A stretch of DNA of 64,000 nucleotides from Candidatus Saccharimonadales bacterium (GTDB lineage Bacteria; Patescibacteriota; Saccharimonadia; Saccharimonadales; UBA10212): assembly GCA_035758565.1 (NCBI GenBank), contig DASTXL010000001.1, positions 75,242 to 139,241 of the forward strand, in the 5' to 3' direction. Of this stretch, positions 25,249-40,641 are shown piece after piece (within the stretch, counting starts at the first letter, position 1; each line of letters opens with the position of its first letter). Under the pieces are notes generated by a model. That model made no database searches, was not told where the DNA came from, and was given only the letters and a program-made list of their open reading frames with translations. The translations under genes and the position numbers were made by a program.

Positions 25249-25578
25249 TTATTTCCAACTATGGCCTAATTCGCTAAGAATGAGCCAAACTTTAATATCG
25301 CTCTGAAGAGCATCTTTTAGAAACTCCTGAATTTTCAGACATATTTCATCTTGCTTTTTCACCCGTTCCTCAAAAGCGGCTGCGTTGATTTCAACCTCAA
25401 CGGGTGCAAGCATGCCGTCTCCTGCAGCTTTTAGCAGACGAACACTTACTTCATCTTCGGAAAGAACAATATCTTTGCCGGAAAGTTCTTTAGCAATCAG
25501 TCCTTTTACGCTTTTCGTCATAGTTGCTAGCTTGTATTCAAATTCGGAGTTCTTTTGATAAATATTAACTGTCGGCAT
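25249..25578 (-). CDS. Tautomerase/MIF-superfamily-like small protein (N-terminal Pro1)
   Basis: Begins MPTVNIY, so Pro follows the initiator Met. ~110 aa with a beta-alpha-beta-like pattern. TATAAT lies 7 nt before the ATG. The family call is tentative. Confidence 0.4.
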   Translation of the reverse strand: MPTVNIYQKNSEFEYKLATMTKSVKGLIAKELSGKDIVLSEDEVSVRLLKAAGDGMLAPVEVEINAAAFEERVKKQDEICLKIQEFLKDALQSDIKVWLILSELGHSWK

Positions 25579-25607
25579 AACTCAAATTATACGCTCAAAA
25601 TAGGTGG

Positions 25608-26432
25608 CTAGGCCTGCATGTCTTCTTGGGGAACATGGATTGCCCAGTCAAAATTACCAGAGCTAAATACGCGCTGCTCGCTTCCGCGGAAAGGCCGTAG
25701 ATCTACCATAAATTCCTCGTCAGATAGACCCGCGGTGCGTACGGCGTCGATAAAGAATGTTGGTGCATCACAAACTCCACCCACCACCCACAGGGGTGAA
25801 ATTTTATAACCATCTCGCGCTAATCTTTTAGATAACGCCGATACTCTTGCATGGTATTTATATCCCCATACACCGTTCATTAGCACTCCTCGGTTCCTTG
25901 CGGCGTGGTCGGCGCCCACTAAAGCCGCCACTACGGCCTTCTCGTCGGCTTCAAAAATGTCCCTCAAGCCCTGTGTCATATGAACTTCGCGCTCCTCTGC
26001 GCCATAGTGGGGGAGGGAATAGTCTACGTCGATCGGAACAACCTTTATACCTTGCCTGACCATGGCCTTAGCAACCTCTTGGTAACTTTCACGGCGCTCC
26101 TTTTTTAGAGGATCGGTATCGTATTTAAGCTCTACTCCTACCCGGGTGTCTCCAAGTTCGTAAGAAGGATCTTTATTAAGAAGGTCAATCCCAGGGCTGG
26201 GAGGGCTCTCTACGGCATAATGGGTCGTGCCACAGGCCTTGATTTCTGCCGCATGTGCCGCTAGATGTCTGCGAACCGGACTATTCCTGTGGTCTTCACC
26301 TATCAGTACCAGCTGGCTGTTGTCAAAGATGCTTGCATAATCGACCGGCTGGACAATATCGTCTAAATCGTTAGCAAGGTCGTCACTACTAGTCCATGTA
26401 TTATCAGATTCTAATAAGCGTTTGTGCGGCAT
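25608..26432 (-). CDS. ChaN/Tiki-superfamily (GxxH) protein
   Basis: LVLIGEDHRN (GExH motif) and LVGADHAARN (GxxH motif) at the spacing seen in ChaN/erythromycin-esterase/Tiki-like proteins. No signal peptide seen. Confidence 0.5.
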   Translation of the reverse strand: MPHKRLLESDNTWTSSDDLANDLDDIVQPVDYASIFDNSQLVLIGEDHRNSPVRRHLAAHAAEIKACGTTHYAVESPPSPGIDLLNKDPSYELGDTRVGVELKYDTDPLKKERRESYQEVAKAMVRQGIKVVPIDVDYSLPHYGAEEREVHMTQGLRDIFEADEKAVVAALVGADHAARNRGVLMNGVWGYKYHARVSALSKRLARDGYKISPLWVVGGVCDAPTFFIDAVRTAGLSDEEFMVDLRPFRGSEQRVFSSGNFDWAIHVPQEDMQA

Positions 26433-26514
26433 AGCGGTATCCTACTTCCTATGCGGTTCAAAGTGCAAGCATAAGCGGACTATAAAGGAACGCGCGCGGG
26501 GTGGAACAGATAAA

Positions 26515-27294
26515 TTAGTTCAAGCAATCCACCGCGCCGGTGCCAAACGGGTTCTCGGCGGCTGATAGTTTATAGCCCATGCAGGCAGGGATTGGTACGC
26601 CTTTGCTATTTGGTCCGTTGCCGTCGTAGCCAAAATCTCCCCAGTGATCGTGAAAGGCCTGCACGATATCCGGCGTGAATATGGCCGGCGCCATAAACTG
26701 GCCGTTATGGTGGATATCAAAGTGGATATGGCTGCCGTTAGATCCCGCTTGGGTCAAATACATGTAGCCGATGATTTGGCCCTTCTTAACCTTTTGACCG
26801 TTATGTACCAATACAAAGGGCTTGTAAAAGCCATTTGGCTTACTGACAAAAGGTTCAATGCTGTAGTCAAAGTTGTATCCCTGGGCGATCTCTATTGATA
26901 TGTCGTACTTGGTGTTATCGCCAACTTTAAAATTATAGTCAACACCGTTAACAACACCGTCAGCTACGGCGTAAATTGGCGGATAGTTACTGGGTGCCGT
27001 GCCGCCTTTGGGCCAGGTTTTATAACCATCACCAAATTGCGCGTGACCGCCAGTGTGCGGGGCAATGGAGCGTACGCCTTTATAAGGGTTGCCGCCCTGA
27101 ACAACGTCCATATCTACCAAAAACCGATCTGATTTATGAGTTTTGAGGTAACTGATATCCGGCAATGAACTATCGTGGGGCAGCGGCGGGCCGTTGCGGT
27201 GAATCCAGACTTCGTAGCCGGCTACGCCTACCGCTAAAACAATAATTAATCCAAATAACCATAAGTGGCCAAAGCCATTCTGCTTATGCTTCAT
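26515..27294 (-). CDS. Membrane-anchored M23 family metallopeptidase
   Basis: N-terminal TM. HTGGHAQFGD and GSNGSHIHFDIHHNG (HxH) are LytM/M23 motifs. TATAAT lies 7 nt before the ATG. Confidence 0.85.
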   Translation of the reverse strand: MKHKQNGFGHLWLFGLIIVLAVGVAGYEVWIHRNGPPLPHDSSLPDISYLKTHKSDRFLVDMDVVQGGNPYKGVRSIAPHTGGHAQFGDGYKTWPKGGTAPSNYPPIYAVADGVVNGVDYNFKVGDNTKYDISIEIAQGYNFDYSIEPFVSKPNGFYKPFVLVHNGQKVKKGQIIGYMYLTQAGSNGSHIHFDIHHNGQFMAPAIFTPDIVQAFHDHWGDFGYDGNGPNSKGVPIPACMGYKLSAAENPFGTGAVDCLN

Positions 27295-27569
27295 GAATTG
27301 AATTATACGCCAAACGCACGCTGGAATATGCGTCCAGTAATTTTCTTCAACTTAAAAAAGGACGCCGCTCTTTTCTCCTTCTGCTTTTCTAAAGCTCGAA
27401 GCAAATGCTCTACCTCACGATTTAGCCTAGGTCATTAGGGCAAAAGGTGCCGTGAGCGTATACTTATAAATAACTAGACGACTGCAACACTAAAAATCAG
27501 TTAGGGAGCGGATAAAGATTGTTGTTGGGCTAAGCCAAAATAGCAATCATAAAAGAAAGGACATCTCAA

Positions 27570-27665
27570 ATGTCTTTATTCCACACTTCTAACAACGACG
27601 CGCCAGAAACTAAGCCAGCCGAAGGCGCCGAAACACCAGAAACCACTACCGAAACCAAAGAGTAG
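27570..27665 (+). CDS. Candidate 31-codon ORF (MSLFHTSNNDAPETKPAEGAETPETTTETKE)
   Basis: Below the track threshold. GAAAGGA lies 8 nt upstream. Low-complexity acidic peptide. Speculative. Confidence 0.2.
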   Translation: MSLFHTSNNDAPETKPAEGAETPETTTETKE

Positions 27666-27741
27666 TCGGTATGTTGGGGAGCTTGGTTTTTAAGCCGGGC
27701 TCCCTGGTCCATAAATATTTAAGAAAGGTTTATTTAAGAAA

Positions 27742-28029
27742 ATGTCAGCTAAATTATTTGTAGGGTCATTACCCTTCAGCATCGACGACACCAAACTAAA
27801 GACTCTGTTTGAGGAGTTTGGAACGGTCGAATCGGCCAGAGTAATCATAGATCGCGATTCGGGCCAGTCAAAAGGCTTCGGTTTTGTAGAGATGAGCACC
27901 ACTGACGAAGCTCAGGCAGCCATAAAAGCAATGAATAGCAAAGATATCGATGGTAGAAATATCGTAGTGAACGTAGCTAAGCCGCAAGTAGATCGCCAAA
28001 ATTCCTTTGGCGGACGTGGGCGCTACTAA
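27742..28029 (+). CDS. RRM-type RNA-binding protein
   Basis: KLFVGSLPF (RNP2) and KGFGFVEM (RNP1). Confidence 0.92.
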   Translation: MSAKLFVGSLPFSIDDTKLKTLFEEFGTVESARVIIDRDSGQSKGFGFVEMSTTDEAQAAIKAMNSKDIDGRNIVVNVAKPQVDRQNSFGGRGRY

Positions 28030-28232
28030 AGTGTCCAAAGATCGCGGTCGCAAAGAGGTCAAAAAACCAAAGAAAGCTTAAGCTAAAAGACTAGCCAGGA
28101 GTCGGGCTGGTAAAATTATTCAACTTATGCTAAAATAAGCTCTAAGTTGTTTTAAGAATCCAGGTTTAGTTTTTCTCTCCATGGCTTTTTATAGCAATTC
28201 AAGAGTTAACTAAATAAAGGGATTCTTTTTAT

Positions 28233-29432
28233 ATGTATAAAAATTCTAGATCCGGCGCCGGCCGCCGCTCCGGCTATACCGTATATAGCAGCAAAAACCA
28301 TCGCCCGCCGAAAAACCGCTCCAAAGGGCAGGTTATTGATCCGGCCAGATTTATTAAAGCCGCCACCGCCAGCGAACAGATAGATTACGTAGCCACTAAT
28401 AGCTTTGATGATTTTGCTATGCACCCGTTACTTAAAGCCAATGTAACAAGCAAGGGCTACAAAGCGCCTTCTGAAATCCAAGATAAAACAATTGCTATAG
28501 GACTTGCCGGCAAGAACGTGGTTGGCGTAGCCGATACGGGCACCGGCAAAACCGCCGCTTTTGCGTTGCCGGTTTTAAACAACCTAATGCGCCGCCCAGG
28601 CAGCAACGCCATAATCATCGCGCCAACCCGCGAGCTGGCTATTCAGATAGAAGAGCAGTGCGTGCTTTTGAGCAAAAACAGCGGCATAAAAATGGCCACG
28701 CTGATTGGTGGAATGCCAATGGGCCGCCAGATACATTCATTGCGAATCGGCGCGCGCCTGATAATTGGCACGCCGGGCCGCATCAAAGACCACTTAAATC
28801 AAGGTACTCTGAATCTAGCTTTCTGCGACATGGTTGTTCTGGATGAAGTGGACCGTATGCTAGACATGGGCTTTTTACCAGACGTGCGTACGATACTCGG
28901 TGAGCTGCCCGGGGAGCATCAGGCCTACTTCTTCAGTGCCACGCTAAGCAACGAAATAAAGAACCTGATAAATACTTTTTGTCACGATCCGGAATATGTA
29001 GACGTAAAAGGCGGAGAAACTAGCGCCAACGTGCACCAAGACGTGGTGCGCTATTCCGGCAAAGAAGAAAAAATTGAGCTACTACACGAAGAGCTGATCA
29101 AAGAAGGCAACACCAAGACGATCGTCTTCGGCAAAACCAAATATGGTGTAGAGCGTCTGGCTAAGGAGCTCGTGGCTCGCGGCTTTAAGGCCGAATCTAT
29201 CCACGGCGGCAAAACTCAAGGCCAGCGCAAGCGCGCGCTAGAAGCCTTTCGTCAAGATAGATCAAACATTTTGGTAGCGACAGACGTCGCGGCTCGCGGC
29301 ATAGACGTAAAAGATATTTCGCACGTTATCAACTACGATACGCCGCAAACTTACGATGATTACGTGCACCGCATCGGTCGTGCCGGCCGGGCCGGACGGG
29401 CCGGCCACGCCCTGACGTTTGTCGAGCGGTAA
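28233..29432 (+). CDS. DEAD-box ATP-dependent RNA helicase
   Basis: Q-motif region, ADTGTGKTAAF, PTRELA, DEVD, SAT, HRIGRAGRAG. Basic N-terminal extension. Confidence 0.93.
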   Translation: MYKNSRSGAGRRSGYTVYSSKNHRPPKNRSKGQVIDPARFIKAATASEQIDYVATNSFDDFAMHPLLKANVTSKGYKAPSEIQDKTIAIGLAGKNVVGVADTGTGKTAAFALPVLNNLMRRPGSNAIIIAPTRELAIQIEEQCVLLSKNSGIKMATLIGGMPMGRQIHSLRIGARLIIGTPGRIKDHLNQGTLNLAFCDMVVLDEVDRMLDMGFLPDVRTILGELPGEHQAYFFSATLSNEIKNLINTFCHDPEYVDVKGGETSANVHQDVVRYSGKEEKIELLHEELIKEGNTKTIVFGKTKYGVERLAKELVARGFKAESIHGGKTQGQRKRALEAFRQDRSNILVATDVAARGIDVKDISHVINYDTPQTYDDYVHRIGRAGRAGRAGHALTFVER

Positions 29433-29433
29433 T

Positions 29434-30414
29434 TCAGGATTTTTCCAGCAGGTTTAAGACGCAGTGTTCGTCGGCGGTGAAGTATTGGGCGCGACGCAGT
29501 TTGCTGACTGCTTCGCGGACTTTATATAAATCATTACTGACTACGTAAGCGTGTATGACGCGCGGATCGATATAGCTGGCGCGGGCGATGGCCGGCGTGT
29601 TGCCTAGCCTTTGAGCCACCTTTTTAACACACTCGGTCACGGCTTTCTTGCGCTCTCGCTCGTGCCTTGAGCGTTCAGTTTGCGCCAGTTCAATGCTGGC
29701 CAGCAGCGTGCCGCCCCAAGTGCGAAAATCCTTGGCGGAAAATTCTTCGCCCATGATCTCTTTGATGTATTCATTGACATCGCCGCTATGGATATCCTTT
29801 AATTCACCATTTTCATCAATGTATTTAAAAATTTCATAGCCTGGCAACTCGTCCAATTGTTTGACTATACGGGCCAACCGCTTATCTGTGACCTTCTTAA
29901 GGTTTTCCTGGCCGCTTTTGCCCACAAAATCAAAGACAATAGTATCGCCTTTAACTTCAGTGTGCTTGGAGCGCAGGGTAGTCAGGCCATAGTGCTGATT
30001 TTCTTTGGCGTATTCTTCGTTGCCAACCCGAAAGTAAGCTTTATCCATCAATTGGACAATGCAAGCTAGGATTTTCTCGCGAGGCAAACCAGGAAGCCTC
30101 AAATGCTCATCGGTAACGCGGCGCATTTTGGGCAGCGCCCGGGCAAATCGCAGAATTCTCTCGAACTTTTCCTTTTCCTGGCGGGCCCGGAACTTGACGT
30201 TATAAATGTATTGCAACCGCCCGGCTTTATCTACTCCTGTCGCCACAATTTTAGCGTTATGGCTGGCGGCAATCTTCACGTCTTTCCAGGCCGGTGGTAT
30301 GGCCAAGGATTTAAAGTAGGCCAACTCTGCTTTGGCGGTAACTTGCCGCCCATCATGAAAATAGCGGAACGACCTGGTTCCGGTCCGCTGCCGCTCGATA
30401 TAGCGCTTAGACAT
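29434..30414 (-). CDS. DNA topoisomerase IB (poxvirus-like bacterial type)
   Basis: FRYFHDGRQV..., GLTTLR, AKDFRTWGGT, LGNTPAIARASYIDPRV (catalytic Tyr context). TATAAT lies 7 nt before the ATG. Confidence 0.85.
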   Translation of the reverse strand: MSKRYIERQRTGTRSFRYFHDGRQVTAKAELAYFKSLAIPPAWKDVKIAASHNAKIVATGVDKAGRLQYIYNVKFRARQEKEKFERILRFARALPKMRRVTDEHLRLPGLPREKILACIVQLMDKAYFRVGNEEYAKENQHYGLTTLRSKHTEVKGDTIVFDFVGKSGQENLKKVTDKRLARIVKQLDELPGYEIFKYIDENGELKDIHSGDVNEYIKEIMGEEFSAKDFRTWGGTLLASIELAQTERSRHERERKKAVTECVKKVAQRLGNTPAIARASYIDPRVIHAYVVSNDLYKVREAVSKLRRAQYFTADEHCVLNLLEKS

Positions 30415-30448
30415 AACAGAAATTATACGACGAAAACCAAGCAGACGG

Positions 30449-30925
30449 TTAGGCTGATGGATCTAACTCGTCATCTTTAACCACGTGTAGCAAGCGGCGC
30501 AAAGATTGGTGACCAACGTTCCGAGCTTTATCGTCGGCAATTGGCCATGTTTGTGTCCATTCCCTTGTGGTGGGCGATTGGGCGTACCAAAGTTCGTCGG
30601 AAGCTCCCCGTTCACGCTTCATGCTGGTCAAGGCCGCCTCGTATTCTTGATTAAGTTCATCTAAGCTCAAACCCAAATAAATGCCTAACTTATAAATGCC
30701 TTCGATTAAGCTTCGGCGCTCTAGTGCGTTGACAAGCTCGACAGCGTATGCGAATTCGCCCGGCAGGCTTTTTCTGAACTCCGCCGCGGTTTCTCCGCTG
30801 CTTGCAACCTCCTCCGGCGCAGGCGGGTCAACTGGCTTTAAATGTCTTTCACCTTTGTGGTCCATAAAACCATCGTAGGCGCTATTTAAGGATAAGAAAA
30901 TGAAGATGGTCACAGTAGCGAACAA
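30449..30925 (-). CDS. Hypothetical protein (possible N-terminal membrane anchor)
   Basis: A TTG start at 30925 gives the hydrophobic N-terminus FATVTIFIFLSL. An alternative ATG at 30865 would remove it. No family recognised. Confidence 0.4.
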   Translation of the reverse strand: MFATVTIFIFLSLNSAYDGFMDHKGERHLKPVDPPAPEEVASSGETAAEFRKSLPGEFAYAVELVNALERRSLIEGIYKLGIYLGLSLDELNQEYEAALTSMKRERGASDELWYAQSPTTREWTQTWPIADDKARNVGHQSLRRLLHVVKDDELDPSA

Positions 30926-30938
30926 TCATGGGCGGGTT

Positions 30939-31673
30939 TTAAACCAAAGACCGGTAGCGGAGGCGTTGGAATATAAAGTGGCCGATAGTGCCCAAGACAG
31001 TAGCCAGCCCGCCGATCGCTAATACATCACCCGGGCCGGTATTTGGCAAAGATTTGCCCGAAAAACTATTATTTTCGTTTTGGGCTGGAGCAGATGACGA
31101 CGTGTTGGCGTTTGCTGGAGCAGGATTAGCAGAAGTTTGACTGGTTTCATTAGCGGGGCTGCCGCTACCGGTTAAGTTTACAGTTGCGTTGGCTGTGGCG
31201 TTAGATGTGGCGTTGGCCGACGAAGTCGAAGAGGGGTTGGGCGTTTGCGGAGACGGTGTCGGTACATTGTTATTCATATTGTTGTTCTGGTTGTTATTGT
31301 TATTACCGCTCTGGTTTTGGCTGTTGCCGCTTGATGGACAACTATTGCTGGTGCCGAAAGGATTAGAAGATCCGCTGGCTATTTGACCTTTTAGGTCGCT
31401 GGTGGAATTTATATTACCGATATTCGCTGGATTGACCCAGCCTTGACGATAAGGCGTGCCGCCGGGGCTTTGCTTAATCACCGCCCCTGTGCAGGTTATC
31501 GTCATGGTCGACCCATCAGCAGGATAAAAAACTTTACTTATTGATGCGCCGCCGCCATAAGGCGGCACCTGATTGCCGCTTGAGCTGTCCGACATAGCGC
31601 TTACACCGGCGCCAATCATCAAACTAGAGGCTATTAATCCTAGAGCCGTTGCTTTCTTGATGTGTTTTAGCAT
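30939..31673 (-). CDS. LPXTG-anchored surface protein, S/N/Q-rich
   Basis: Signal peptide MLKHIKKATALGLIASSLMIGAGVSAMS. C-terminal LPNTG, hydrophobic stretch and RLRYR tail. ATG at 31673 follows GGGGGA. Confidence 0.75.
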   Translation of the reverse strand: MLKHIKKATALGLIASSLMIGAGVSAMSDSSSGNQVPPYGGGASISKVFYPADGSTMTITCTGAVIKQSPGGTPYRQGWVNPANIGNINSTSDLKGQIASGSSNPFGTSNSCPSSGNSQNQSGNNNNNQNNNMNNNVPTPSPQTPNPSSTSSANATSNATANATVNLTGSGSPANETSQTSANPAPANANTSSSAPAQNENNSFSGKSLPNTGPGDVLAIGGLATVLGTIGHFIFQRLRYRSLV

Positions 31674-31784
31674 TGAGTCCCCCAATCCCTTACTGGTTCA
31701 AGTTAGCTTAATACCTGGAACGTGTCGGTTAATTTGGCGACAATTTGAATACCAAAAACATCACAACTGCGATAGCTTAAGCAG

Positions 31785-31813
31785 TTTACATATAGGCGAT
31801 AAAATTGTATAAT
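31785..31813 (+). promoter_or_regulatory. Sigma70-like promoter candidate for the islet-C gene
   Basis: TTTACA-17 nt-TATAAT in AT-rich DNA, about 75 nt upstream of the ATG. Confidence 0.45.
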
Positions 31814-31888
31814 TTGCGCTAGTTCAGGGAAGATTTTTCTGGAAGGGGCGCCTTATCGCGTCCGAATACAATTCATTGGAGGTCAGCT

Positions 31889-32497
31889 ATGACCGAGGCC
31901 ATCCATTGGGCGGCCAAGCGTCTGGACGACACCCGCGTGGCCTGGATCCTCGCGGCACTCGCTGCCGCGGTGTTCATCGAGGCCGCCGGAGCAGAGCTGG
32001 GGCAGCTCAAGTGGTCCTACTTCGACTGGGGCCAGCTGCTCGCCTTCGGCTTCGTCACCGCAGCAGTGGTGGTGGGCGCCGAGACGATGAAGGAGGAGAT
32101 GTACAAGCTCTTCAAGGCCGTCACGGTCGTGGCGATGACCCTGTTCGTCGTCGACGTGTTCGTCGAGAACGGCTCGCGCTTCCCCGGGCTGCGCCTGGGG
32201 TGGCTGTGGCTGGTGCTGGCGGTCTTCACCGTCTGGATGTGGTTCATGATCGACATGGACCGCGATCCGCAAGTGACACCGCCCGGAAGGAGTCTCTACT
32301 TCTACCCCGCGGCTCGTCGGCTGGCGGTGACGGTTCTCGCCGGGGCGATCATCTTCGGCGTCGGCCTGCTGGCGATCTTCCACTCGTGGAAGGGTCTCGG
32401 GGTGGTTGCGTTCATCGAGATCCTGTCGGCCGTCGTGCTGGCGGAGCTCTACAGGGCCTCACCACGCGAGCGTGTCGGCCAATCCGTCGTCACCTGA
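31889..32497 (+). CDS. Hypothetical ~6-TM membrane protein (high-G+C islet C)
   Basis: GGAGG lies 6 nt before the ATG. GC3-rich codons. Hydrophobic helices throughout. RFPGL motif. No family recognised. Confidence 0.65.
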   Translation: MTEAIHWAAKRLDDTRVAWILAALAAAVFIEAAGAELGQLKWSYFDWGQLLAFGFVTAAVVVGAETMKEEMYKLFKAVTVVAMTLFVVDVFVENGSRFPGLRLGWLWLVLAVFTVWMWFMIDMDRDPQVTPPGRSLYFYPAARRLAVTVLAGAIIFGVGLLAIFHSWKGLGVVAFIEILSAVVLAELYRASPRERVGQSVVT

Positions 32498-32505
32498 ACG
32501 AAAGA

Positions 32506-32544
32506 GGGCCGCCCCGCATGCCCTCACCGGCTGCGGGGCGGCCC
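32506..32544 (+). terminator. 12-bp GC hairpin after the islet-C gene
   Basis: gggccgccccgc-15 nt-gcggggcggccc. No U-tract. Confidence 0.55.
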
Positions 32545-32664
32545 TCCGCTCACAACTATTAGCTTGTGTAGGTTAAGCACACTTTTATCCACACGCTAAC
32601 CACAATTATTAAGGAGTTATATAAACATAAGCGTTTTAAGAAGTTAAATCGTTGTTTTTTATTG

Positions 32665-32693
32665 TTGACACCAAAAGCGGAGAGGAATATAAA
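32665..32693 (+). promoter_or_regulatory. Promoter candidate in the AT-rich spacer between islets C and D
   Basis: TTGACA-17 nt-TATAAA. Confidence 0.35.
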
Positions 32694-32699
32694 TATAAG

Positions 32700-32808
32700 T
32701 GTCACTGTGAGGTGACAAAGCCAAGTACCAATTTATTGGCAACTGGCTCGGTAAACATCCCTCGTGGATGTTTACCACCCAAGAAACGAGCTTTCGGGCT
32801 CGTTTTTT
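32700..32808 (+). ncRNA. Candidate ~110-nt small RNA (promoter + hairpins + intrinsic terminator)
   Basis: Hairpins gtcac/gtgac (32701-32716) and ggtaaacatcc/ggatgtttacc (32750-32776). Terminator aaacgagc-tttcgg-gctcgttt + TTT (32784-32808). No family recognised. Confidence 0.3.
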
Positions 32809-32824
32809 GTTTGCTCTGCCGATA

Positions 32825-32853
32825 TTGAAAACTACAGATATTTATGATATAAA
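32825..32853 (+). promoter_or_regulatory. Sigma70-like promoter candidate for the islet-D gene
   Basis: TTGAAA-17 nt-TATAAA in AT-rich DNA upstream of the composition shift. Confidence 0.4.
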
Positions 32854-32917
32854 TTGCTCCGTGCACTCGGTACATACTGAGGCAAGACCTACGTCCCCGT
32901 CCAAAGGAGGCTTTTCG

Positions 32918-33538
32918 GTGCCGTATCGCAAGAAGTCGCTTGCGGACCGCCTAACGGCGGCCCTCGAGCAGGAGTGGATGCCGCTGACCCTGCTGATCGT
33001 CGCCATCTTGGCGTCGGTCGCCGCGGCGACGGCCCACCAGCACGTGCGTTTGCACCACGTCTGGTTCGTTCACCTGACTCCCGACGTGCTGAACTACGGC
33101 ACGCCGGTCGGGACCATGCTTGTCTGCCTGGCCGCCTTCGCGGCGGCCTTTCAGACGAAGTACTCGAACCTGCTGGTCATCGCGGCAGTATCGGCGATCA
33201 TGGGCGCATCGCTGCCCAACTCGCACCGCTTCCCGGGCCTGCACGCCAGCCACGACTGGTACTTGGTCGCCCTCGCGGCGATCATCTTCTACCTCGTGGC
33301 GGCACTGCAGAACTGGAAGGGTGTGAACTTCCAGCACAAGCGCGCTGATCGCGTGACGATCTACGCGATGGCGTGCGTGGCGGTGTCGGCCCTGATCTAC
33401 CAGAACACCACCTGGGCTCTGCACGGGTGGTTCGCACTGACGATGGTCCTGATGTTCATGTGGCGCCTCTCGGTGCCGCGCTACTCGCGCGACCACAAGC
33501 TCGACAAGGCCACCGTGAAGCAGTTCAGCGGAACGTAG
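32918..33538 (+). CDS. Hypothetical ~6-TM membrane protein (high-G+C islet D), possible paralog of the islet-C protein
   Basis: GTG at 32918 lies 7 nt after AAGGAGG. The track ATG at 32768 would read through a terminator and AT-rich DNA. RFPGL and WKG motifs are shared with the islet-C protein. Confidence 0.65.
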   Translation: MPYRKKSLADRLTAALEQEWMPLTLLIVAILASVAAATAHQHVRLHHVWFVHLTPDVLNYGTPVGTMLVCLAAFAAAFQTKYSNLLVIAAVSAIMGASLPNSHRFPGLHASHDWYLVALAAIIFYLVAALQNWKGVNFQHKRADRVTIYAMACVAVSALIYQNTTWALHGWFALTMVLMFMWRLSVPRYSRDHKLDKATVKQFSGT

Positions 33539-33542
33539 GTCG

Positions 33543-33570
33543 AAGCCGGGCCCCCTCAAGGGCCCGGCTT
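33543..33570 (+). terminator. 11-bp GC hairpin after the islet-D gene
   Basis: aagccgggccc-cctcaa-gggcccggctt. Confidence 0.55.
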
Positions 33571-33753
33571 TAGACCAGTTTTATAGCTAAAATTCAAGTT
33601 GATTTACTGGGGTCATTTGGCTTATGATTATAGAGGCTAAACAAAAAGCCAAAAGTACACCTCACAAAAAAGCGGGAATAAACCTCCCGCTTTTCTCGCT
33701 ATTAGGGCCAAAATTCAATTGGTTCTCAGCTTGGTATTGTTAAACTAACACTT

Positions 33754-34218
33754 ATGAAGAAGACGGCCGTTATCATCATAACCATCGCTCTACTGGGGTT
33801 AATTGGCATTTACGAAAAGACTCATGCCAGCACACACGAACTAGTCTCGCCGTCGCAAACAGAGGCAGCAACCATGATGAATAAATCAAGAATATCTTCT
33901 ATTAGCTCCAATACAACTTCAACCGTCAGCTACAAGGACGGTACATATACTGGCGATAGCGAATCTACTCCTTACGGCCAGGTACAAATTGCCGTGGTGA
34001 TTAACGGTGGCAAAATAACCAACGTTAATTTTTTGCAAATGCCCAACGATCAACGCGAATCTGAGCAACGAACTATCTATAGTGAACCGCTACTTAAACA
34101 AACAGCTATTGATAAACAGAGTGCCAACATTGATTTTGTAAGCGGTGCTACAAGTACTAGCGAAGGTTACCAGCAATCCCTCCAGTCGGCTCTCGATCAA
34201 GCCGCTAGATCGACGTAG
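33754..34218 (+). CDS. Membrane-anchored FMN-binding domain protein (ApbE flavinylation substrate type)
   Basis: N-terminal TM. C-terminal IDFVSGATSTSEGY matches the D-x-x-SGAT-S/T flavinylation motif of FMN_bind domains. TAAACT lies 7 nt before the ATG. Confidence 0.8.
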   Translation: MKKTAVIIITIALLGLIGIYEKTHASTHELVSPSQTEAATMMNKSRISSISSNTTSTVSYKDGTYTGDSESTPYGQVQIAVVINGGKITNVNFLQMPNDQRESEQRTIYSEPLLKQTAIDKQSANIDFVSGATSTSEGYQQSLQSALDQAARST

Positions 34219-34405
34219 CGCCTGCACCTGCCAGCCGGCGGAGCCGGCTGCACCGCTCATGCTTCTGCCGACTCTGCTACGTTATTGTCTCCGATACTCC
34301 CTCACCGTATTTCAATACGGTTCGGTCTGTTTCTCGACAAAGCCTTGCATAGCCGGCAGCTACGCCAATCTAATAAATCTGAGACAAGAAAGGTAAAATA
34401 AATTT

Positions 34406-35131
34406 ATGCGACGGGTAGAGCAGATTATGGGCATGCCAATAAGCATTGATATTCCCCAGTGCCAGAACGAGGTTGTTTTTGAGGAAGTATTTGACAGGTT
34501 AAAAGAAATAGACCGAAAGTTCAGCCCATATAGACCCGATAGTCAATTGAATCTCCATAATAAAGGTCGACTCAAGCCAGATAAGGAACTCAAGAGCATT
34601 ATTAAAGCTTGCAAAGAGGCCGAAGAGCTAACTGACGGATTTTTTTCGGCTTGGGCCAGCGGTGTTTTTGATCCAAGTGGATACGTAAAAGGCTGGGCAA
34701 TTGACCAAGCCGGCAAGCTCATCAAAAAAGCCGGCTACCAAACTTTTTGCGTAGCTGCCGGCGGCGACATTCTTGCTCGGTCGCAAACCAATAAGGACTG
34801 GGTAATCGGTATTCAAAATCCGTTCGATAAATCCAAGATTATTGGCAGCATCAAAGGAAAAAATTTTGCCGTGGCTACCAGTGGTAATTATGAACGCGGC
34901 GAGCATATTATTAATCTCAAAACCAAAAAGCCGGCGCTGGAATTGGCTAGCTTTACCGTGACAGGCAAGAATATTATCGAAGCCGACGTGTTGGCAACGG
35001 CCGGATTCGTGGCCGGTGATTTCGGTATTAATTTTGTGGGCAACCAGCACGGCTATGAAGCTCTGGCTATAAATTTAGACGGCCGAGTTTCGGCCACCGG
35101 CGGGATGAAGAAAATTTTCAGACCGGTTTAG
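34406..35131 (+). CDS. apbE: FAD:protein FMN transferase (ApbE family), short form without signal peptide
   Basis: IMGMPISIDI, FSPYRPDSQLNLHN, GYVKGWAIDQAG, AAGGDILA, ATSGNYERGEHIIN, ADVLATAGFV. Confidence 0.85.
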   Translation: MRRVEQIMGMPISIDIPQCQNEVVFEEVFDRLKEIDRKFSPYRPDSQLNLHNKGRLKPDKELKSIIKACKEAEELTDGFFSAWASGVFDPSGYVKGWAIDQAGKLIKKAGYQTFCVAAGGDILARSQTNKDWVIGIQNPFDKSKIIGSIKGKNFAVATSGNYERGEHIINLKTKKPALELASFTVTGKNIIEADVLATAGFVAGDFGINFVGNQHGYEALAINLDGRVSATGGMKKIFRPV

Positions 35132-36633
35132 TTGCCGTAGCCCGGGAAGAAGTCGGTTTTTATCCGACTTTGTGATATGCCGAGCTCGGTTAAGTGCAGG
35201 CGGATAAACTCGGTAAAAGCCTGTGATCCAGAAATATAAAAAGTGCGCTCGTGGTAATCGGGCAAGCTCCGGGCAATAGTTTGCTTGGTGATGGCCGAGG
35301 TGGTGCAAAGGGCCTTCAAGCCAAGCGGCTCAAGATCGGTGAAAACCTTGCGAAAAGCTATCTCTTCTTTCTTGCTAACCGCGTAAATCAGGCCAACGTC
35401 GCGTTTTTGGTTTTGATCAACCAAATATTTGCTCATGCTGCGAAACGGCGTAATACCAACGCCGCCGGCTATGAAAGCCAGCTTTCTAGTCGTGTCTTCG
35501 GGCAAAGTAAAACTGCCGGTTAGATAAGAAGCTAGAATGGGGTCGCCGGGTTTTAGCTGTTCTAGCTGCTGCTTGAAGGCGCTCGGCTTAGAAGGTAATT
35601 TGACAGTAAACATTACTTGCTTTTCCGTGGGTGAAGACGAGATTGTCAGGTAGCGGCGGTTACCGCGTGAGTCGCTCTTTGCTTGTTTTAATGTCCACTC
35701 CATGTACTGACCGGCCTTAAAATTAAAGTTTTTAGGTGCCGAAAATACGTAGCTATAAATTCCTTCGGCATCTTTGACCTTGTGAATAAAGCTGAATTGA
35801 AAGCGGCGGTTGGGCGCGATCAAAAAGGTGAGCGCATTGCCAATCAGCAATGACTCTTCCGGGCTGATATGCAGCCTATTAAGCGAGTAAACTACACCGA
35901 CCGCTACGGCGTAAATCAAAGTTGGGTTGAGTGTGGCGGGCGAAGTGAGCGGCTCCGTTAGCATAATGGTGGCAAAGAAAAGCAAAGGCGTATAGATAAT
36001 TCCTAGCCATACTAAGTGCTGTACCGTGTCGGTACTGCTGCCGGTTGGCACTTGTAAAATCAAAATCAACACGTAGACGGCCGAGAATACTAAAGCCAGA
36101 CTAAAGCGTTTGATTTTGCGCAAAATCAGAATACCGCCAATGGCGACTATCGGCAGAGTGAATTTAGACCCGACCCACCACGAGGCGTAGTCGCTAAAGA
36201 TCGTGCCGGCAACAAAGGCGCCAAAGGCAGCCGGATTAAAAATATGGGCTCTGCGGAATACCAAAACGTATTTGGAGGCCATAGCCACCGCCGCGGCGAT
36301 CGCCAAAATTGCATAGTCGCTGCCGGTGGTCGCCGGTGATAGAATCAACGTTAAAATTAAGCCGCTTATCAAAGCCGATTCTTTGTTGGCCGGAATATTA
36401 AGCGCGCGTGAAAGAATCTTATTCGCTATCCAGCAAACGGCGAGTATTAAAGCTGTCGAGGCTAAAATGTGATCCCACGAGAATCCCACTTGGTGAAAAA
36501 AGCTGCCGATTACGCTCCAGCCCAGCAGTGCTAACAAAACGTAAAGGACCAACCGGTAGGAAGTGAGTTGGTCGTTGATTTTATCAACAAGCGAGACGCA
36601 TCGCTGCCAAGTTAGGTTGATCTGGGTAAGCAT
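35128..36633 (-). CDS. RnfD/NqrB-like membrane domain fused to an FNR-type FAD/NAD(P)H-binding reductase
   Basis: N-terminal half: ESALISGLILTLILSP, HIFNPAAFGAF, IMLTEPLTSPAT (RnfD-like). C-terminal half: RRYLTISS (RxYS), GGVGITPFRSM (NAD site). Confidence 0.65.
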   Translation of the reverse strand: MLTQINLTWQRCVSLVDKINDQLTSYRLVLYVLLALLGWSVIGSFFHQVGFSWDHILASTALILAVCWIANKILSRALNIPANKESALISGLILTLILSPATTGSDYAILAIAAAVAMASKYVLVFRRAHIFNPAAFGAFVAGTIFSDYASWWVGSKFTLPIVAIGGILILRKIKRFSLALVFSAVYVLILILQVPTGSSTDTVQHLVWLGIIYTPLLFFATIMLTEPLTSPATLNPTLIYAVAVGVVYSLNRLHISPEESLLIGNALTFLIAPNRRFQFSFIHKVKDAEGIYSYVFSAPKNFNFKAGQYMEWTLKQAKSDSRGNRRYLTISSSPTEKQVMFTVKLPSKPSAFKQQLEQLKPGDPILASYLTGSFTLPEDTTRKLAFIAGGVGITPFRSMSKYLVDQNQKRDVGLIYAVSKKEEIAFRKVFTDLEPLGLKALCTTSAITKQTIARSLPDYHERTFYISGSQAFTEFIRLHLTELGISQSRIKTDFFPGYGN

Positions 36634-36679
36634 ACGCTTAATTTCATCTTAAATTGCTGAGGGCGAACTTAAAATATCT

Positions 36680-37882
36680 TTAAGCGATTTTTTTGGGCGC
36701 GCATATGGTGCAATCTTCTGGACCTTCCATATTCTCGGCTAGCCAGTGCTTGGAGGATTTCCACCACGGTTCGTAGTCATTAAAGCCTCTAAAGTCGGCA
36801 GCACTTCTAAGCAACCAGCCGAGCTTGCCATAGATTTGTACTTTGCCCCAAAGTACGGCTGCCCACCACGGACCGACCGGAGTCACATAAATCGGCCGCT
36901 TTGGCGTGTAGGCCTTGGCTGCCTTGCCGCGGGCCAAGCGTTTTAAGTTACGAGTCACGAAAGACGCGTCATAAAGAGCAGTTTGAGCCATGCCCGAATA
37001 CAGAGTGTCGGCATTATCGCCAATAACGTAAATATTGTCTTCGGCCTGCAGGTGATCGTCCACCAGGACCTTGCCGCGTTCGTTTAACTTGAATTCGTTA
37101 GCTGAAAAGAAAGGATGGTTAGTAACGCCGGCCGTCCAGACCACGGTATGGCTGGCAATATCGTGGCCGCTGACTGTTAAGCCTTCGGCGGTCTCGGCAC
37201 TGACTGTCTGGCCTAGATAAAGTTTGACGCCCAAACGGCGCAACCGCCGGGCTACAGCTTTTGAATAACTCTTGGGCATGCGGCCCATTAACTGCGGCGC
37301 GGCCTCTACTAGGTCGATATGTAGCGAGTGCTTTTTAATTCCGTGGCGCGCCATAATCGATTTTAAGTAGGCGGGCAAAGCGCCAGCTAGCTCAACTCCG
37401 GTCGGGCCGCCACCGATGACTACGTAGTTAAGATCGGGCTTACCTTCGTCTAGCATCTGTTTATGCAAATGGTCACGTAGTTCCGTAGCGTCTTCTATGG
37501 TTTTAATGCCGTAAGAATATTCTTTAAGGCCCTTAATACCAAAGTAATTGGTTATCACGCCAAGAGCGATCACTAGGTCGTCGTAAGAGTATTTTTTGCC
37601 GGACTCGCCGACCACGTGCTTGGCGGTGCGATCAATATTTTTGGCGCTGTCTTTGATTAACTTCACATTTTTGCCAGCGAAAATTTCACTGAGTGGTATC
37701 TGTGAAGCTGATAGCCTACCACCAGTTGCCGCATGGTAGAGGGTGGGGTAGTAGCGGAAATTATCCTGCTCACTCAGCAGCGCTACATCGAACCTATCGT
37801 TATCAGCTAGCTCCAGCGCTACTTTAATACCGCCAAAGCCGCCGCCTATTATTAGGATTTTCTTTTTGTTTTTTTCCATCAA
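36680..37882 (-). CDS. ndh: Type II NADH dehydrogenase-like FAD-dependent oxidoreductase
   Basis: KILIIGGGFGGIKVA (first dinucleotide fold), YVVIGGGPTGVELAG (second), IYVIGDNA. Confidence 0.85.
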   Translation of the reverse strand: MMEKNKKKILIIGGGFGGIKVALELADNDRFDVALLSEQDNFRYYPTLYHAATGGRLSASQIPLSEIFAGKNVKLIKDSAKNIDRTAKHVVGESGKKYSYDDLVIALGVITNYFGIKGLKEYSYGIKTIEDATELRDHLHKQMLDEGKPDLNYVVIGGGPTGVELAGALPAYLKSIMARHGIKKHSLHIDLVEAAPQLMGRMPKSYSKAVARRLRRLGVKLYLGQTVSAETAEGLTVSGHDIASHTVVWTAGVTNHPFFSANEFKLNERGKVLVDDHLQAEDNIYVIGDNADTLYSGMAQTALYDASFVTRNLKRLARGKAAKAYTPKRPIYVTPVGPWWAAVLWGKVQIYGKLGWLLRSAADFRGFNDYEPWWKSSKHWLAENMEGPEDCTICAPKKIA

Positions 37883-37982: not shown

Positions 37983-39437
37983 TTGGCAAAAAAACAATTA
38001 TCAAAACATTCTGAGAACAAATGGGTGATCTTGGCGTTACTAGCTATGGCTCAGTTTATGGTGGTGGTAGACGTAACCATCGTCAACGTGGCATTGCCAT
38101 CAATGGCCCAGGCCCTCAAATTTACGGCCAACAACTTGCAATGGGTAATCACGGCCTATACTTTGACGTTCGGCGGTTTCTTGCTGCTTGGCGGCCGAGC
38201 GGCTGATCTTTACGGCCGACGCAAAATCTTTATCTGGTCAGTTGCCTTTTTTGCCGCAATGAGCTTACTGTGCGGCCTAGCTCAATCTGATACTCAGGTA
38301 ATTATCGCCCGGGCGTTACAAGGACTAGCGGGCGCCATCATGTCGCCGGCGGCACTTTCGATCGTAATTAGCGAATTCAACGAAGGTAAAGAACGCAACA
38401 CGGCGCTTGGTGTGTGGGCGGGTGTGGCGGCCGGTGGATCGGCCGTTGGCTTGTTGCTCGGCGGTATTTTGACTCAGTACCTAAGCTGGCGCTGGAACTT
38501 CTTTGTAAACGTGCCAATCGGTATTGGCGTAGTTTACGCAGCTGTTAAACTCTTGCCGCACCATATTGGTGAAGAAAACAAAAAACTTCATCTGGACTTG
38601 CCCGGCGCCGTGCTCGGTACGGCCGGTTTGATGAGTTTGGTTTACGGCCTATCAAAAGCACCAGCTGATGGCTGGGGCTCGGCAACCGTTTGGGAATTTA
38701 TCGTAGCCGCTATTGTTCTGCTAATTGGCTTTGTACTTAATGAACGCCGTACCGATCAACCCATGCTGCCGCTTGACCTATTCAAAATCCGCAACGTTTC
38801 GGGTGGTAACGCAACGGCTCTGGCCATAGCCTGTACGTTGTTTAGCATGTTCTATTTCATGACGCTTTATGTTCAGACGGTGTTGGGTTACGGTCCGGCT
38901 AAGTCCGGTGTGTCTTTCATGGTAGTAACGGTAGTGATTGGCGGAACCAGCGCTTTCGTTTCCAAGAAAGTCAATAAGGTTGGCTATAAGCCATTCTTGG
39001 TTGCCGGCCCAATATTCTTGGCCATCGGTCTCTATGTAACGAGTGTCTTAATGAAGGTCAATGGCCATTACTGGCAAAATGTCTTCCCAGGCTTAGTGCT
39101 GATAGCTCTTGGAATGGGTTGTTCGTTCATCTCTATGACTTTGGCTGCAACTAGCGGCGTGCCTAAGCATTTTTCGGGTATTGCTTCTGGCGTTCTTAAC
39201 ACTTCCCAGCAGGTGGGTGGCGCCATTGGCCTGGCTATTTTGTCGGCCGTATATGCCTCTGATCTTAAGACCGGTTTAGCAAACGGTACGTCGGTAGCCA
39301 ATGCTAAAATTCACGGCTTTCAAGCTGGTTTGCACGTTGGTGTCGCTTTGGCTGTAGTCGCCGCCATAGTTGCACTACTGGTAGTCAAAAACGAAAAAGT
39401 CAACGCCGAAGATCTAGCCGCGGTTGCTGCTGCTTAG
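37983..39437 (+). CDS. MFS transporter, DHA2 (EmrB/QacA, 14-TMS) family
   Basis: VDVTIVNVALPSM, GGRAADLYGRRKIF (motif A), about 14 hydrophobic segments. TTG start 6 nt after GAGGGG. Confidence 0.85.
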   Translation: MAKKQLSKHSENKWVILALLAMAQFMVVVDVTIVNVALPSMAQALKFTANNLQWVITAYTLTFGGFLLLGGRAADLYGRRKIFIWSVAFFAAMSLLCGLAQSDTQVIIARALQGLAGAIMSPAALSIVISEFNEGKERNTALGVWAGVAAGGSAVGLLLGGILTQYLSWRWNFFVNVPIGIGVVYAAVKLLPHHIGEENKKLHLDLPGAVLGTAGLMSLVYGLSKAPADGWGSATVWEFIVAAIVLLIGFVLNERRTDQPMLPLDLFKIRNVSGGNATALAIACTLFSMFYFMTLYVQTVLGYGPAKSGVSFMVVTVVIGGTSAFVSKKVNKVGYKPFLVAGPIFLAIGLYVTSVLMKVNGHYWQNVFPGLVLIALGMGCSFISMTLAATSGVPKHFSGIASGVLNTSQQVGGAIGLAILSAVYASDLKTGLANGTSVANAKIHGFQAGLHVGVALAVVAAIVALLVVKNEKVNAEDLAAVAAA

Positions 39438-39850
39438 GCTTTAGGGCAGTTGGCACACAAGCCATAGATTTCGAGGTGATGGCCGCGTGGGCTGAAGTTC
39501 TCTTTGGACACAACGGAATTAATCATAGTTTCTAACATAGCATTAGCGGGCAGGGGGTAAACCCGGTTGCAATTAGTGCAATAAAAGTGGTGATGGTGCT
39601 CGGAGAAAATATCCGATAATTCGATTTTGTATTTCCAGCCAATATTTAGTCGGTGAACGATTCCCAGATCTTCGAACAACTCGATAATCCTGTACACGGT
39701 CGCTCTGTCTACTTTGTCTTCGGCGCGCTTGACCAGCACTTGCATACTTTGCGGTTCCTGGTTGAGCAAAAGATCAAAAATAATCTTTCTAGGCCTGGTC
39801 AGGCTCGAGCCGTTCTTCCTTAAAAGAGCCTTCAATGATTCGTAATGCAT
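39434..39850 (-). CDS. Fur-family metalloregulator (Zur-like by context)
   Basis: Winged-helix N-terminus (DRATVYRIIELFEDLGIV). HHHFYCTNCNRV and GLCANC are the metal-site Cys pairs. Divergent from the ZIP transporter gene. Confidence 0.8.
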   Translation of the reverse strand: MHYESLKALLRKNGSSLTRPRKIIFDLLLNQEPQSMQVLVKRAEDKVDRATVYRIIELFEDLGIVHRLNIGWKYKIELSDIFSEHHHHFYCTNCNRVYPLPANAMLETMINSVVSKENFSPRGHHLEIYGLCANCPKA

Positions 39851-39866: not shown

Positions 39867-39887
39867 TTTTGCGACATATTTGCAAAA
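39867..39887. promoter_or_regulatory. Inverted repeat TTTTGC-N9-GCAAAA in the Fur/ZIP divergent promoter region (candidate Fur/Zur box)
   Basis: ttttgcgacatatttgcaaaa. AT-rich dyad between two divergent genes. Confidence 0.3.
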
Positions 39888-39915: not shown

Positions 39916-40641
39916 ATGGATGCTTTTTTGCTTTCGATCATTGCCGCGCTGGGCGCTTTGGTAGGCGGCTTTATCGCGCTGAATAGCCGTCGTCATTTAT
40001 ATAAAGCTCTAGGTTTTACCGCCGGAGTCATTTTGGGCTTAGTGGCTTTTGATCTGTTGCCGGAAATTTTTAAAATCATAAATTCGACCAGCCTTGATAG
40101 CAAATGGCCGATGATTGCGCTGTGTTTTGGGTTTTTGTTTATGCATGTGGTTGAAAAGCTTATTTTGTTTCACCACGCCGAGGAGCAGGAATACGGTCCA
40201 CACGTGCACCCCTACGTAGGTTTTGTGAGCGCCATTGCGCTGGCCGGCCATAGCTTTTTGGATGGAGTGGCCATTGGCCTGGCCTTTCAGGTTAATAGCT
40301 CAATTGGTACGACCGTGGCCATTGCGGTAATCGCCCATCGTTTTGCCGATGGGTTTAATACTACGAACGTCATGCTTTATAACAAGAACCAGCCTAAGCG
40401 CGCCAGGCAAATGCTAATGGTAGCCGCCGCTATGCCGATACTTGGCGCGCTTTTTACTCAAATCTTTAGTTTATCCGAGAAGTCGCTGGCGATTTATTTA
40501 GGGTTTTTCGCGGGCTTTTTGCTATATATCGGTGCCAGCGAAATTTTGCCCCAGGCTCATTCTAAAAAATCTTCGCGCATCACTATTGGGCTCACCGTAC
40601 TGGGCACTGTTTTTATGTTTATCGTGACCCGTTTAGCCTAA
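39916..40641 (+). CDS. ZIP family metal (zinc) transporter
   Basis: HSFLDGVAIGLAF and IAHRFADGF are motifs typical of ZupT-like ZIP permeases. His-rich loop HHAEEQEYGPHVH. Confidence 0.8.
   Translation: MDAFLLSIIAALGALVGGFIALNSRRHLYKALGFTAGVILGLVAFDLLPEIFKIINSTSLDSKWPMIALCFGFLFMHVVEKLILFHHAEEQEYGPHVHPYVGFVSAIALAGHSFLDGVAIGLAFQVNSSIGTTVAIAVIAHRFADGFNTTNVMLYNKNQPKRARQMLMVAAAMPILGALFTQIFSLSEKSLAIYLGFFAGFLLYIGASEILPQAHSKKSSRITIGLTVLGTVFMFIVTRLA

Follow-up and report, generated by a model that had tools for sequence, protein, structure and literature searches.

A 64,000-nt stretch of a Candidatus Saccharimonadales genome (contig DASTXL010000001.1, positions 75,242 to 139,241; hereafter the window) carries, at 33754-36633, three genes that we read, with a probability of about 0.72, as an NQR/RNF-like system of two subunits for electron transfer across the membrane, accompanied by its flavin transferase, in a host of the Candidate Phyla Radiation (CPR). 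The subunits would be a membrane-anchored FMN_bind protein of the NqrC/RnfG type and a 501-aa protein in which an NqrB/RnfD-like polytopic membrane domain is fused to an FNR-type module; the transferase belongs to the ApbE family. The 501-aa protein is 100% identical to one from a Candidatus Saccharimonadales metagenome-assembled genome, encoded on a 483-kb contig. We infer that NAD(P)H would be oxidized at the cytoplasmic FNR module, presumably on flavin adenine dinucleotide (FAD), and that the electrons would cross the membrane via a putative flavin in the NqrB/RnfD-like domain. They would then reach the flavin mononucleotide (FMN) that ApbE is predicted to attach covalently to Thr133 of the FMN_bind subunit at the outer face, and would leave from there to an external or membrane acceptor. 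Such a system would probably serve a fermentative epibiont with little respiratory chain to re-oxidize NAD(P)H and so to get rid of reducing equivalents. Domain identities, folds, the loss of the NqrB flavinylation loop, the conserved SGAT motif and the gene linkage are shown by the analysis; cofactors, direction of electron flow, sidedness, acceptor and co-transcription are inferred.

NQR/RNF-like systems have been defined by a fusion of PF03116 and PF00175 in a flavinylation gene cluster, within five genes of ApbE and/or FMN_bind (Méheust et al. 2021, eLife, PMC8238504), and have been described mainly in Actinobacteria and CPR (PMC8238504; Huang et al. 2024, mSystems, PMC11334425). In the window, both domains lie in the 501-aa open reading frame (ORF), at 42.5 bits for PF03116 (gathering score 27.7) and 33.6 bits for PF00175 (gathering score 22); the ApbE gene overlaps the 3' end of the fusion gene, and the FMN_bind gene lies 187 nt upstream of the ApbE gene. 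From an AlphaFold-multimer model of the Ktedonobacter complex, it has been described that the NqrB/RnfD-like subunit is without the flavinylated Thr, and that the NqrC/RnfG-like subunit docks with its FMN site close to the flavin pocket left empty (PMC11334425). The proteins of the window share this trait, with no flavinylated Thr in the fusion and an SGAT motif at residues 130-133 of the partner. The system is already known from the 2021-2024 catalogue and, in Saccharibacteria, since 2018, when a novel protein with NqrB-like and NqrF-like parts, apparently the same fusion, was reported from a soil genome (Starr et al. 2018, PMC6031116); what is added here is a clade-specific rearrangement.

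The family is large. It comprises 608 representative clusters at 50% identity (E ≤ 1e-30), and a relative is encoded in at least 594 stretches of GTDB species representatives (594 of the first 600 pattern matches). Gene neighbourhoods were compared in 83 loci, namely 80 GTDB-derived loci, two metagenomic contigs and the window, in which ORFs were called and then searched with hidden Markov models (HMMs) built from the window proteins. By record title, the 80 loci comprise 38 from Patescibacteria, 16 from Alphaproteobacteria, 8 from Chloroflexota, 3 from Actinomycetota, 5 labelled Gammaproteobacteria, 1 from Spirochaetia and 9 unclassified; two extra contigs from the clade of the window (L083 and L084) were judged from their gene tables. 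The fusion is accompanied by FMN_bind in 72 of the 83 loci, by ApbE in 67 and by both in 66, usually in a co-directional operon of overlapping genes in the order FMN_bind, ApbE, fusion. This recurrence in several phyla shows that the adjacency is not fortuitous. The electron conduit that a first-pass annotation of the window had suggested is thereby retained for these three genes, which form a conserved module; the published reading of that module, which we adopt as the most probable, is a one-way conduit from NAD(P)H to an extracytosolic flavin (PMC8238504, PMC11334425). The system is widespread, and it may be a main route of NAD(P)H re-oxidation, or of electron exchange with surroundings or hosts, in CPR bacteria without respiratory chains.

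The fusion protein and its FMN_bind partner

The first-pass annotation had described two convergent gene pairs, FMN_bind and ApbE on the plus strand and an NDH-2-type flavoenzyme and the fusion on the minus strand (Table 1). All four ORFs were found at the positions given there, and the motifs quoted from them are all present in the translations (DFVSGATSTSEG in the FMN_bind protein, HIFNPAAFG, MLTEPLTSP, RRYLTISS and GGVGITPF in the fusion, GGGFGG and GGGPTG in NDH-2). The Pfam searches that it had proposed recovered FMN_bind, ApbE, NQR2_RnfD_RnfE, NAD_binding_1 and Pyr_redox_2; only FAD_binding_6 was unreported at E ≤ 0.01. With NCBIfam models, no family scored above its cut-off for any of the four genes. 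The stop codons of the two pairs overlap (TTAG, 35128-35131), and the same 4-nt overlap stands at the same position in four loci of the clade (L001, L003, L083 and L084). Since the convergent ApbE and fusion genes share these 4 nt, there is no space for terminators between them, and each transcript must end within the opposing gene.

The AlphaFold2 (AF2) model of the fusion (pLDDT 92.4, pTM 0.86) consists of about ten helices followed by a β-barrel and a Rossmann domain. The membrane domain carries the conserved motifs HIFNPAA, SWWVG and MLTEPLTSP, and a profile of this domain matched RnfD (8ahx_D, E 1.9e-7) and NqrB (7xk3_B, E 2e-4) in the PDB. When the whole model was compared with the PDB by Foldseek, FNR structures dominated and no NqrB/RnfD chain was among the top 50; the kinship with NqrB/RnfD therefore rests on Pfam and on the profile search. 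NqrB residues 135-212 and 272-393 align with the fusion, and NqrB residues 213-271, which we take to be the loop bearing the flavinylated Thr236 of the Vibrio cholerae enzyme, are represented by only ~11 profile positions. The RnfD-like domain thus has no SGAT motif because the whole flavinylation loop of NqrB, some 60 residues, is deleted. The first-pass annotation was correct in not seeing an SGAT site in this domain, and what it had noted is a known trait of the family (PMC11334425) that is seen again here. The fusion has a single [ST]G[AS][ST] match (TGSS, residue 197), which does not coincide with the place homologous to the NqrB Thr. We also considered A-[S/T]-W-W (residues 150-153) as a relic of the flavinylation site and rejected it, as it sits in the 11-position stub that replaces the NqrB loop and has E, L, V or I at the relevant position in 5 of 37 sequences.

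The FNR part of the fusion has the motifs RRYLTISS and GGVGITPF and ends in DFFPGY. Its profile matched flavohemoglobin and NqrF FAD domains in the PDB (E about 1e-21), and Foldseek placed it close to NqrF and other FNR modules (TMt 0.65-0.79). Because the AF2 model, Foldseek and these profile matches to NqrF and flavohemoglobin reductase modules agree, the module is clearly predicted to be complete with two domains, even though FAD_binding_6 was unreported. No Fe-S motif was found in the fusion and no Cys is invariant in a 37-sequence alignment, which argues that the protein has no Fe-S relay. The AF2 helices together with the charges of the loops fit a ten-helix domain with both termini inside; this topology would turn the short ASWWVG loop outward and would leave the FNR module in the cytoplasm.

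The FMN_bind subunit begins with MKK and a hydrophobic anchor (residues 1-19), followed by a Ser/Thr-rich linker and the FMN_bind domain (residues 75-148). The anchor is the only hydrophobic segment of the protein (2.01 in a Kyte-Doolittle (KD) 19-residue window), and the N-terminus has a possible THA/S cleavage site. S130-G-A-T133 is located in the motif IDFVSGATSTSE, with Thr133 as the predicted attachment site of FMN. This feature is conserved: 66 of 67 FMN_bind family members have [ST]GA[ST], 19-23 residues from the C-terminus. The N-terminal flank of the anchor is more positive than its C-terminal flank in 57 of the 66 FMN_bind partners. Neither a lipobox nor a twin-Arg motif was found in the window protein or in the family members examined (66 proteins for twin-Arg).

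Two side observations concern the surroundings of this subunit. The spacer between the FMN_bind and ApbE genes is 187 nt long in the window (34219-34405) versus 9-65 nt in the relatives. Within it are a perfect, GC-rich hairpin, CAGCCGGC-GGA-GCCGGCTG, that is not followed by a T-tract, and another small hairpin (34304-34321); a role in processing or attenuation is possible. In four Patescibacteria loci with no adjacent ApbE (L015, L024, L056 and L077), the protein encoded directly upstream of the fusion is small and N-anchored, is without [ST]GA[ST] and has a weak or no FMN_bind score; such loci may represent a version of the system that does without covalent flavin.

Table 1. Features of the locus, in window coordinates. 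All Pfam assignments of the four cluster genes are above gathering scores.
Feature	Position	Strand	Length and basis
NqrC/RnfG-like FMN_bind subunit	33754-34218	+	154 aa; PF04205 FMN_bind, E 9e-10
Thr133 codon (ACA), predicted FMN attachment residue	34150-34152	+	read from the sequence and the motif position
GC-rich hairpin in the FMN_bind/ApbE spacer	34232-34250	+	repeat search and sequence
ApbE-family FAD:protein FMN transferase, compact, leaderless	34406-35131	+	241 aa; PF02424 ApbE, E 3.5e-39
RnfD-like/FNR fusion, whole gene	35128-36633	-	501 aa
FNR-type FAD/NAD(P)H module of the fusion	35128-35808	-	about residues 276-501; PF00175 NAD_binding_1, E 6.5e-8
NqrB/RnfD-like polytopic membrane domain of the fusion	35809-36633	-	about residues 1-275; PF03116 NQR2_RnfD_RnfE, E 6.7e-11
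NDH-2-type flavoenzyme	36680-37882	-	400 aa; PF07992 Pyr_redox_2, E 2.3e-45
DHA2-family MFS efflux permease	37983-39437	+	Pfam and NCBIfam
Fur-family regulator	39434-39850	-	Pfam and NCBIfam
ZIP/ZupT-like metal importer	39916-40641	+	Pfam and NCBIfam

The leaderless ApbE and the site of flavinylation

Several points weigh against the conduit as set out above. The step from the FNR module to the membrane flavin is without an Fe-S relay of the Nqr type, and an unbiased clustering of neighbouring ORFs revealed no conserved acceptor or terminal reductase beside the cluster. The conserved pairing of the fusion with NDH-2 in the clade of the window could reflect a functional coupling that is not visible here, and the NqrB-like domain might translocate ions, as was proposed by Starr et al. 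(PMC6031116), which we consider unlikely for the reasons given below. The model of the system in the literature was built by homology and AlphaFold-multimer only, and no experimental work on any family member was found in the searchable literature. The last point is the sidedness of the transferase. No signal peptide, lipobox or transmembrane (TM) segment was found in any of the 67 cluster ApbEs, compact proteins of about 230-250 aa from across the phyla, and among the 120 closest database homologues of ApbE (218-257 aa) none reaches a 19-residue KD value of 1.6 in its first 60 residues. ApbEs characterised for extracytosolic substrates are, by contrast, exported lipoproteins (PMC12052999). 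The sequences thus predict a cytoplasmic ApbE in every locus examined, next to an only SGAT-bearing partner that is predicted to be oriented N-in/C-out, and a simple picture of extracytosolic flavinylation fails. This conflict was overlooked in the first-pass annotation, and the leaderless character of the cluster ApbE is not discussed in either of the two papers that describe the system (PMC8238504, PMC11334425).

The window ApbE itself is a well-predicted member of its family. Its AF2 model (pLDDT 93.3) gave TMq values of 0.88-0.90 to Listeria FmnB and Treponema pallidum Ftp in Foldseek, H167, D194 and T198, the predicted catalytic His and metal-binding Asp and Thr, are invariant across 30 homologues, and the motif that contains the His can be aligned to its counterpart in V. 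cholerae ApbE (6nxi). The protein has no hydrophobic segment (KD maximum 1.37) and starts at the first β-strand of the fold (MRRVEQIMGMPISIDI), so that the model leaves no residues for a leader. A hidden N-terminal extension was considered and discarded, since an in-frame TAA (34394-34396) stands 9 nt upstream of the ATG, the spacers of the relatives are as short as noted above, and the maximal ORFs of the cluster ApbEs (~245-253 aa) start at the same MK/RxxR motif, M[KR]xT[RK]xLMGMP.

One way to reconcile a cytoplasmic transferase with its partner is that, in the whole NQR/RNF-like family, ApbE acts in the cytoplasm, either because FMN is added to the SGAT motif of the NqrC-like subunit before translocation or because the FMN domain is not extracytosolic. 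We put this forward tentatively and regard it as rather doubtful. Flavinylation of the untranslocated chain has some support, because ApbE is active in the cytoplasm of Escherichia coli, where it modifies truncated NqrC; ApbE also accepts short motif tags. Alternatively, it is possible that a second, exported ApbE is encoded elsewhere in the genome, or that an unconventional export route is used. Export of a pre-flavinylated FMN_bind protein by the twin-arginine translocation pathway was rejected, as a twin-Arg motif is absent from all 66 proteins. Of the leads obtained here, only the leaderless ApbE might alter the understanding of the family; it raises the question at which place and stage the outward-facing subunit receives its flavin. 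Were flavinylation to precede translocation, extracytosolic covalent flavoproteins could be made without export of FAD, which would suit minimal CPR genomes; were the FMN domain cytoplasmic, the published topology of the system would be overturned.

NDH-2, the clade-specific neighbourhood and rival explanations

The fourth gene encodes a full-length homologue of characterised NDH-2 enzymes. Its residues 6-365 align to residues 3-382 of Caldalkalibacillus thermarum NDH-2 (4nwz) with an E-value of 4.5e-36, further matches are Bacillus subtilis YjlD and Staphylococcus aureus NDH-2, and both GxGxxG motifs (GGGFGG and GGGPTG) are kept. The quinone-site motif AQxAxQ reads AQTALY in the window protein versus AQIAIQ in 4nwz, with the first Gln kept and the second replaced by Tyr. 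No TM helix is predicted (KD maximum 1.43, with a threshold of 1.6 for the 19-residue window). In the window, the NDH-2 gene lies 46 nt upstream of the fusion gene on the same strand. NDH-2 adjoins the fusion in all six clade loci (the window, L001, L002, L003, L083 and L084), whose fusions share 49-63% identity, and in none of the 79 others. In this clade, the fusion gene is inverted, overlaps the ApbE gene tail-to-tail and begins 11-52 nt past the end of NDH-2; in L084 alone, the calls of the two genes overlap. NDH-2 and the fusion are probably co-transcribed. The synteny of all four genes, which the first-pass annotation had wanted checked in relatives, was found in the own clade of the window, and the role that it had given to NDH-2, a dedicated core part of the conduit, is not borne out by the other loci. 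The gene product is a genuine NDH-2 homologue; in our reading, it is probably co-expressed in this clade as a second NADH-oxidising membrane enzyme and is not a subunit of the conduit.

The rearranged cluster belongs to a block that is conserved in the clade as a unit, in the order RmuC-(YkuD)-ZIP-Fur-MFS-NDH-2-fusion-ApbE-FMN_bind, with MFS, Fur and ZIP syntenic in L001, L002, L003, L083 and L084; synteny ends just past FMN_bind. Outside the clade, ZIP is nearby in just two loci and a clear homologue of the window MFS permease in four. Fur and ZIP seem to make up a metal-uptake unit of their own. No shared operator of the Fur/Zur type was found across the region upstream of FMN_bind, the NDH-2/MFS spacer and the Fur/ZIP spacer; a weak candidate, TTTTGC-N9-GCAAAA (39867-39887), is located in the 65-nt divergent spacer between Fur and ZIP, with none similar upstream of the flavinylation genes. 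A scan for promoter- and terminator-like sites gave 15 and 18 hits versus 9.1 ± 3.0 and 10.7 ± 3.7 in shuffled sequence, none of them informative. Among the other loci (L004-L082), 28 encode a histidine kinase and an OmpR-type response regulator within 6 kb of the fusion, which makes these its commonest extra neighbours; a MacB-type ABC exporter comes next, with FtsX and HlyD components (22 and 12 loci), and then an extracytoplasmic function (ECF) sigma factor (8 loci).

On the other side of the cluster, a variable island of ~9.4 kb (24347-33700) separates FMN_bind from MgsA (23134-24324), which directly abuts FMN_bind in L002 and L083. The island encodes a zeta-toxin homologue (24347-25018), an M23 peptidase, a DEAD-box helicase, a bacterial topoisomerase IB (29434-30414) and a surface protein rich in Ser and Asn that bears an LPNTG sorting signal (30939-31685); two membrane ORFs without a Pfam match lie in a part of it that is rich in GC (55.7%, 31.9-33.6 kb). 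Elsewhere, the window is occupied by housekeeping genes, including, about 20 kb from the cluster, an F1Fo ATP synthase operon (10161-16412) and G6PD (17032-18372), and further thioredoxin reductase, GAPDH, further pentose-phosphate and glycolytic enzymes, and PheST. No respiratory oxidase, Nqr/Rnf subunit or quinone-synthesis gene was found among the 57 ORFs scanned in the 64-kb window.

These surroundings bear on three other explanations of the cluster. The first-pass annotation had likened it to the flavin-based extracellular electron transfer (EET) locus of Listeria; a chain of that kind would lead from a dedicated NDH-2 through quinone to a flavinylated FMN_bind protein, which would pass the electrons to external acceptors. 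The adjacency of NDH-2, ApbE and FMN_bind, the tight spacing of NDH-2 and the fusion on one strand in the six clade loci and the full-length homology to true NDH-2 enzymes are what such a chain would predict. We nevertheless hold it to be most improbable. NDH-2 is missing from all 79 clusters outside the clade, and it is without the TM helix that serves as the operational marker of EET Ndh2 (PMC8238504). The FMN_bind protein, with just one FMN_bind domain and without a lipobox, reaches only 28.4 bits with the NCBIfam PplA model (cut-off 325); the transferase is not an exported lipoprotein; and the fusion has an NAD(P)H entry site of its own. The further genes of the block belong to other families (MFS, Fur, ZIP, YkuD and RmuC), and, as the first-pass annotation had itself remarked, there are no EetA/B-like or quinone-synthesis genes in the conserved block, those for demethylmenaquinone (DMK) included. 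In another explanation, which draws on the neighbouring ZIP and Fur genes, the extracytosolic flavoprotein would act as a reductase of Fe(III) or of another metal, which ZIP would then import under control of the Fur-family regulator. ZIP and Fur are kept 2.8-3.3 kb from the fusion in the six clade loci, ZIP is also near the cluster in L020 and L071, and VIT1 iron transporters occur in six NQR/RNF-like clusters (PMC8238504). The linkage is, however, missing from about 75 other loci, where two-component systems and MacB-type ABC exporters are the most frequent neighbours; the cluster genes share no operator upstream; and, as the whole region is syntenic in the clade, RmuC and PheS included, the adjacency is little informative. 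Reductive metal uptake thus appears highly unlikely as the function of the system.

The remaining explanation concerns the membrane domain. Starr et al. proposed for the soil Saccharibacteria protein that it may translocate ions, in a chain with NDH-2, scavenged quinone and cytochrome bo3 (PMC6031116). Applied to the window, the fusion would be an ion-translocating NADH oxidoreductase that builds a membrane potential through an Na+/H+ path in its NqrB-like domain. This domain is indeed homologous to NqrB/RnfD, NDH-2 is encoded next door, and an F1Fo ATP synthase operon is present in the window, yet no homologue of NqrD/E, the carriers of the membrane Fe-S centre in Nqr, was found near the cluster, the fusion is without the Fe-S motif that Starr et al. 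had assumed, and no cyo genes were found in the 64-kb window. In addition, the fusion is strongly linked, in 66 of 83 loci, to ApbE and to an FMN_bind protein that bears SGAT and is predicted to be anchored facing outward, and this linkage speaks for an exit of the electrons through an extracytosolic flavin. The one-way conduit from NAD(P)H to this flavin remains the reading that we prefer.

Comparison with known electron-transfer systems

The three-gene module agrees with the NQR/RNF-like system in its fusion of PF03116 with a C-terminal PF00175, in the adjacent FMN_bind protein with [S/T]GA[S/T] and the adjacent ApbE, in the missing NqrB-like flavinylated Thr and in its CPR host. It differs from NQR/RNF-like loci elsewhere, which form one co-directional operon, in that the fusion of the clade is inverted, lies tail-to-tail on ApbE and follows NDH-2. 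With Na+-NQR and RNF it shares a membrane domain that is a homologue of NqrB/RnfD, an FNR module that resembles the FAD/NADH domain of NqrF, and the ApbE-dependent flavinylation motif. In contrast to those complexes, it would consist of two polypeptides, with no NqrA/D/E or RnfA/B/C/E, no 2Fe-2S domain and no counterpart of NqrB loop 213-271; no families of a six-subunit Nqr/Rnf operon were found by Pfam in the 57 window ORFs or in the gene tables of the related loci. Electron flow is predicted to be one-way and outward here, whereas it is semicircular in Na+-NQR and RNF.

SpNOX of Streptococcus pneumoniae (8qt6), which was among the Foldseek matches, likewise joins a redox membrane domain to a C-terminal cytoplasmic dehydrogenase domain of the FNR type, and the movement of NAD(P)H electrons across the membrane would be shared as a design principle. 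Only the FNR part is homologous, as SpNOX has a six-helix di-haem ferric reductase domain in the membrane, whereas the fusion has an NqrB/RnfD-like one, presumably with bound flavin. The cluster ApbE resembles the cytoplasmic ApbE of Klebsiella pneumoniae (PMC12052999) in having no signal peptide and in its predicted cytoplasmic action. The substrate of the K. pneumoniae enzyme is a soluble cytoplasmic fumarate reductase (PMC12052999), whereas the only SGAT partner here is predicted to be N-in/C-out, with its FMN domain outside.

The EET locus of Listeria monocytogenes, finally, has in common with the block an ApbE-family transferase (by fold, the window ApbE comes nearest to FmnB, TMq 0.89), an FMN_bind protein and an NDH-2 homologue. 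Of the Listeria set of Ndh2, EetA, EetB, PplA, FmnA/FmnB and DmkA/B, the block is without EetA/B, the DMK genes and PplA, and its ApbE is no lipoprotein. Entry of electrons from NAD(P)H would occur here at the NqrB-like/FNR fusion, of which Listeria has no equivalent. As NDH-2 probably stands outside the system, the Listeria model should not be carried over to it.

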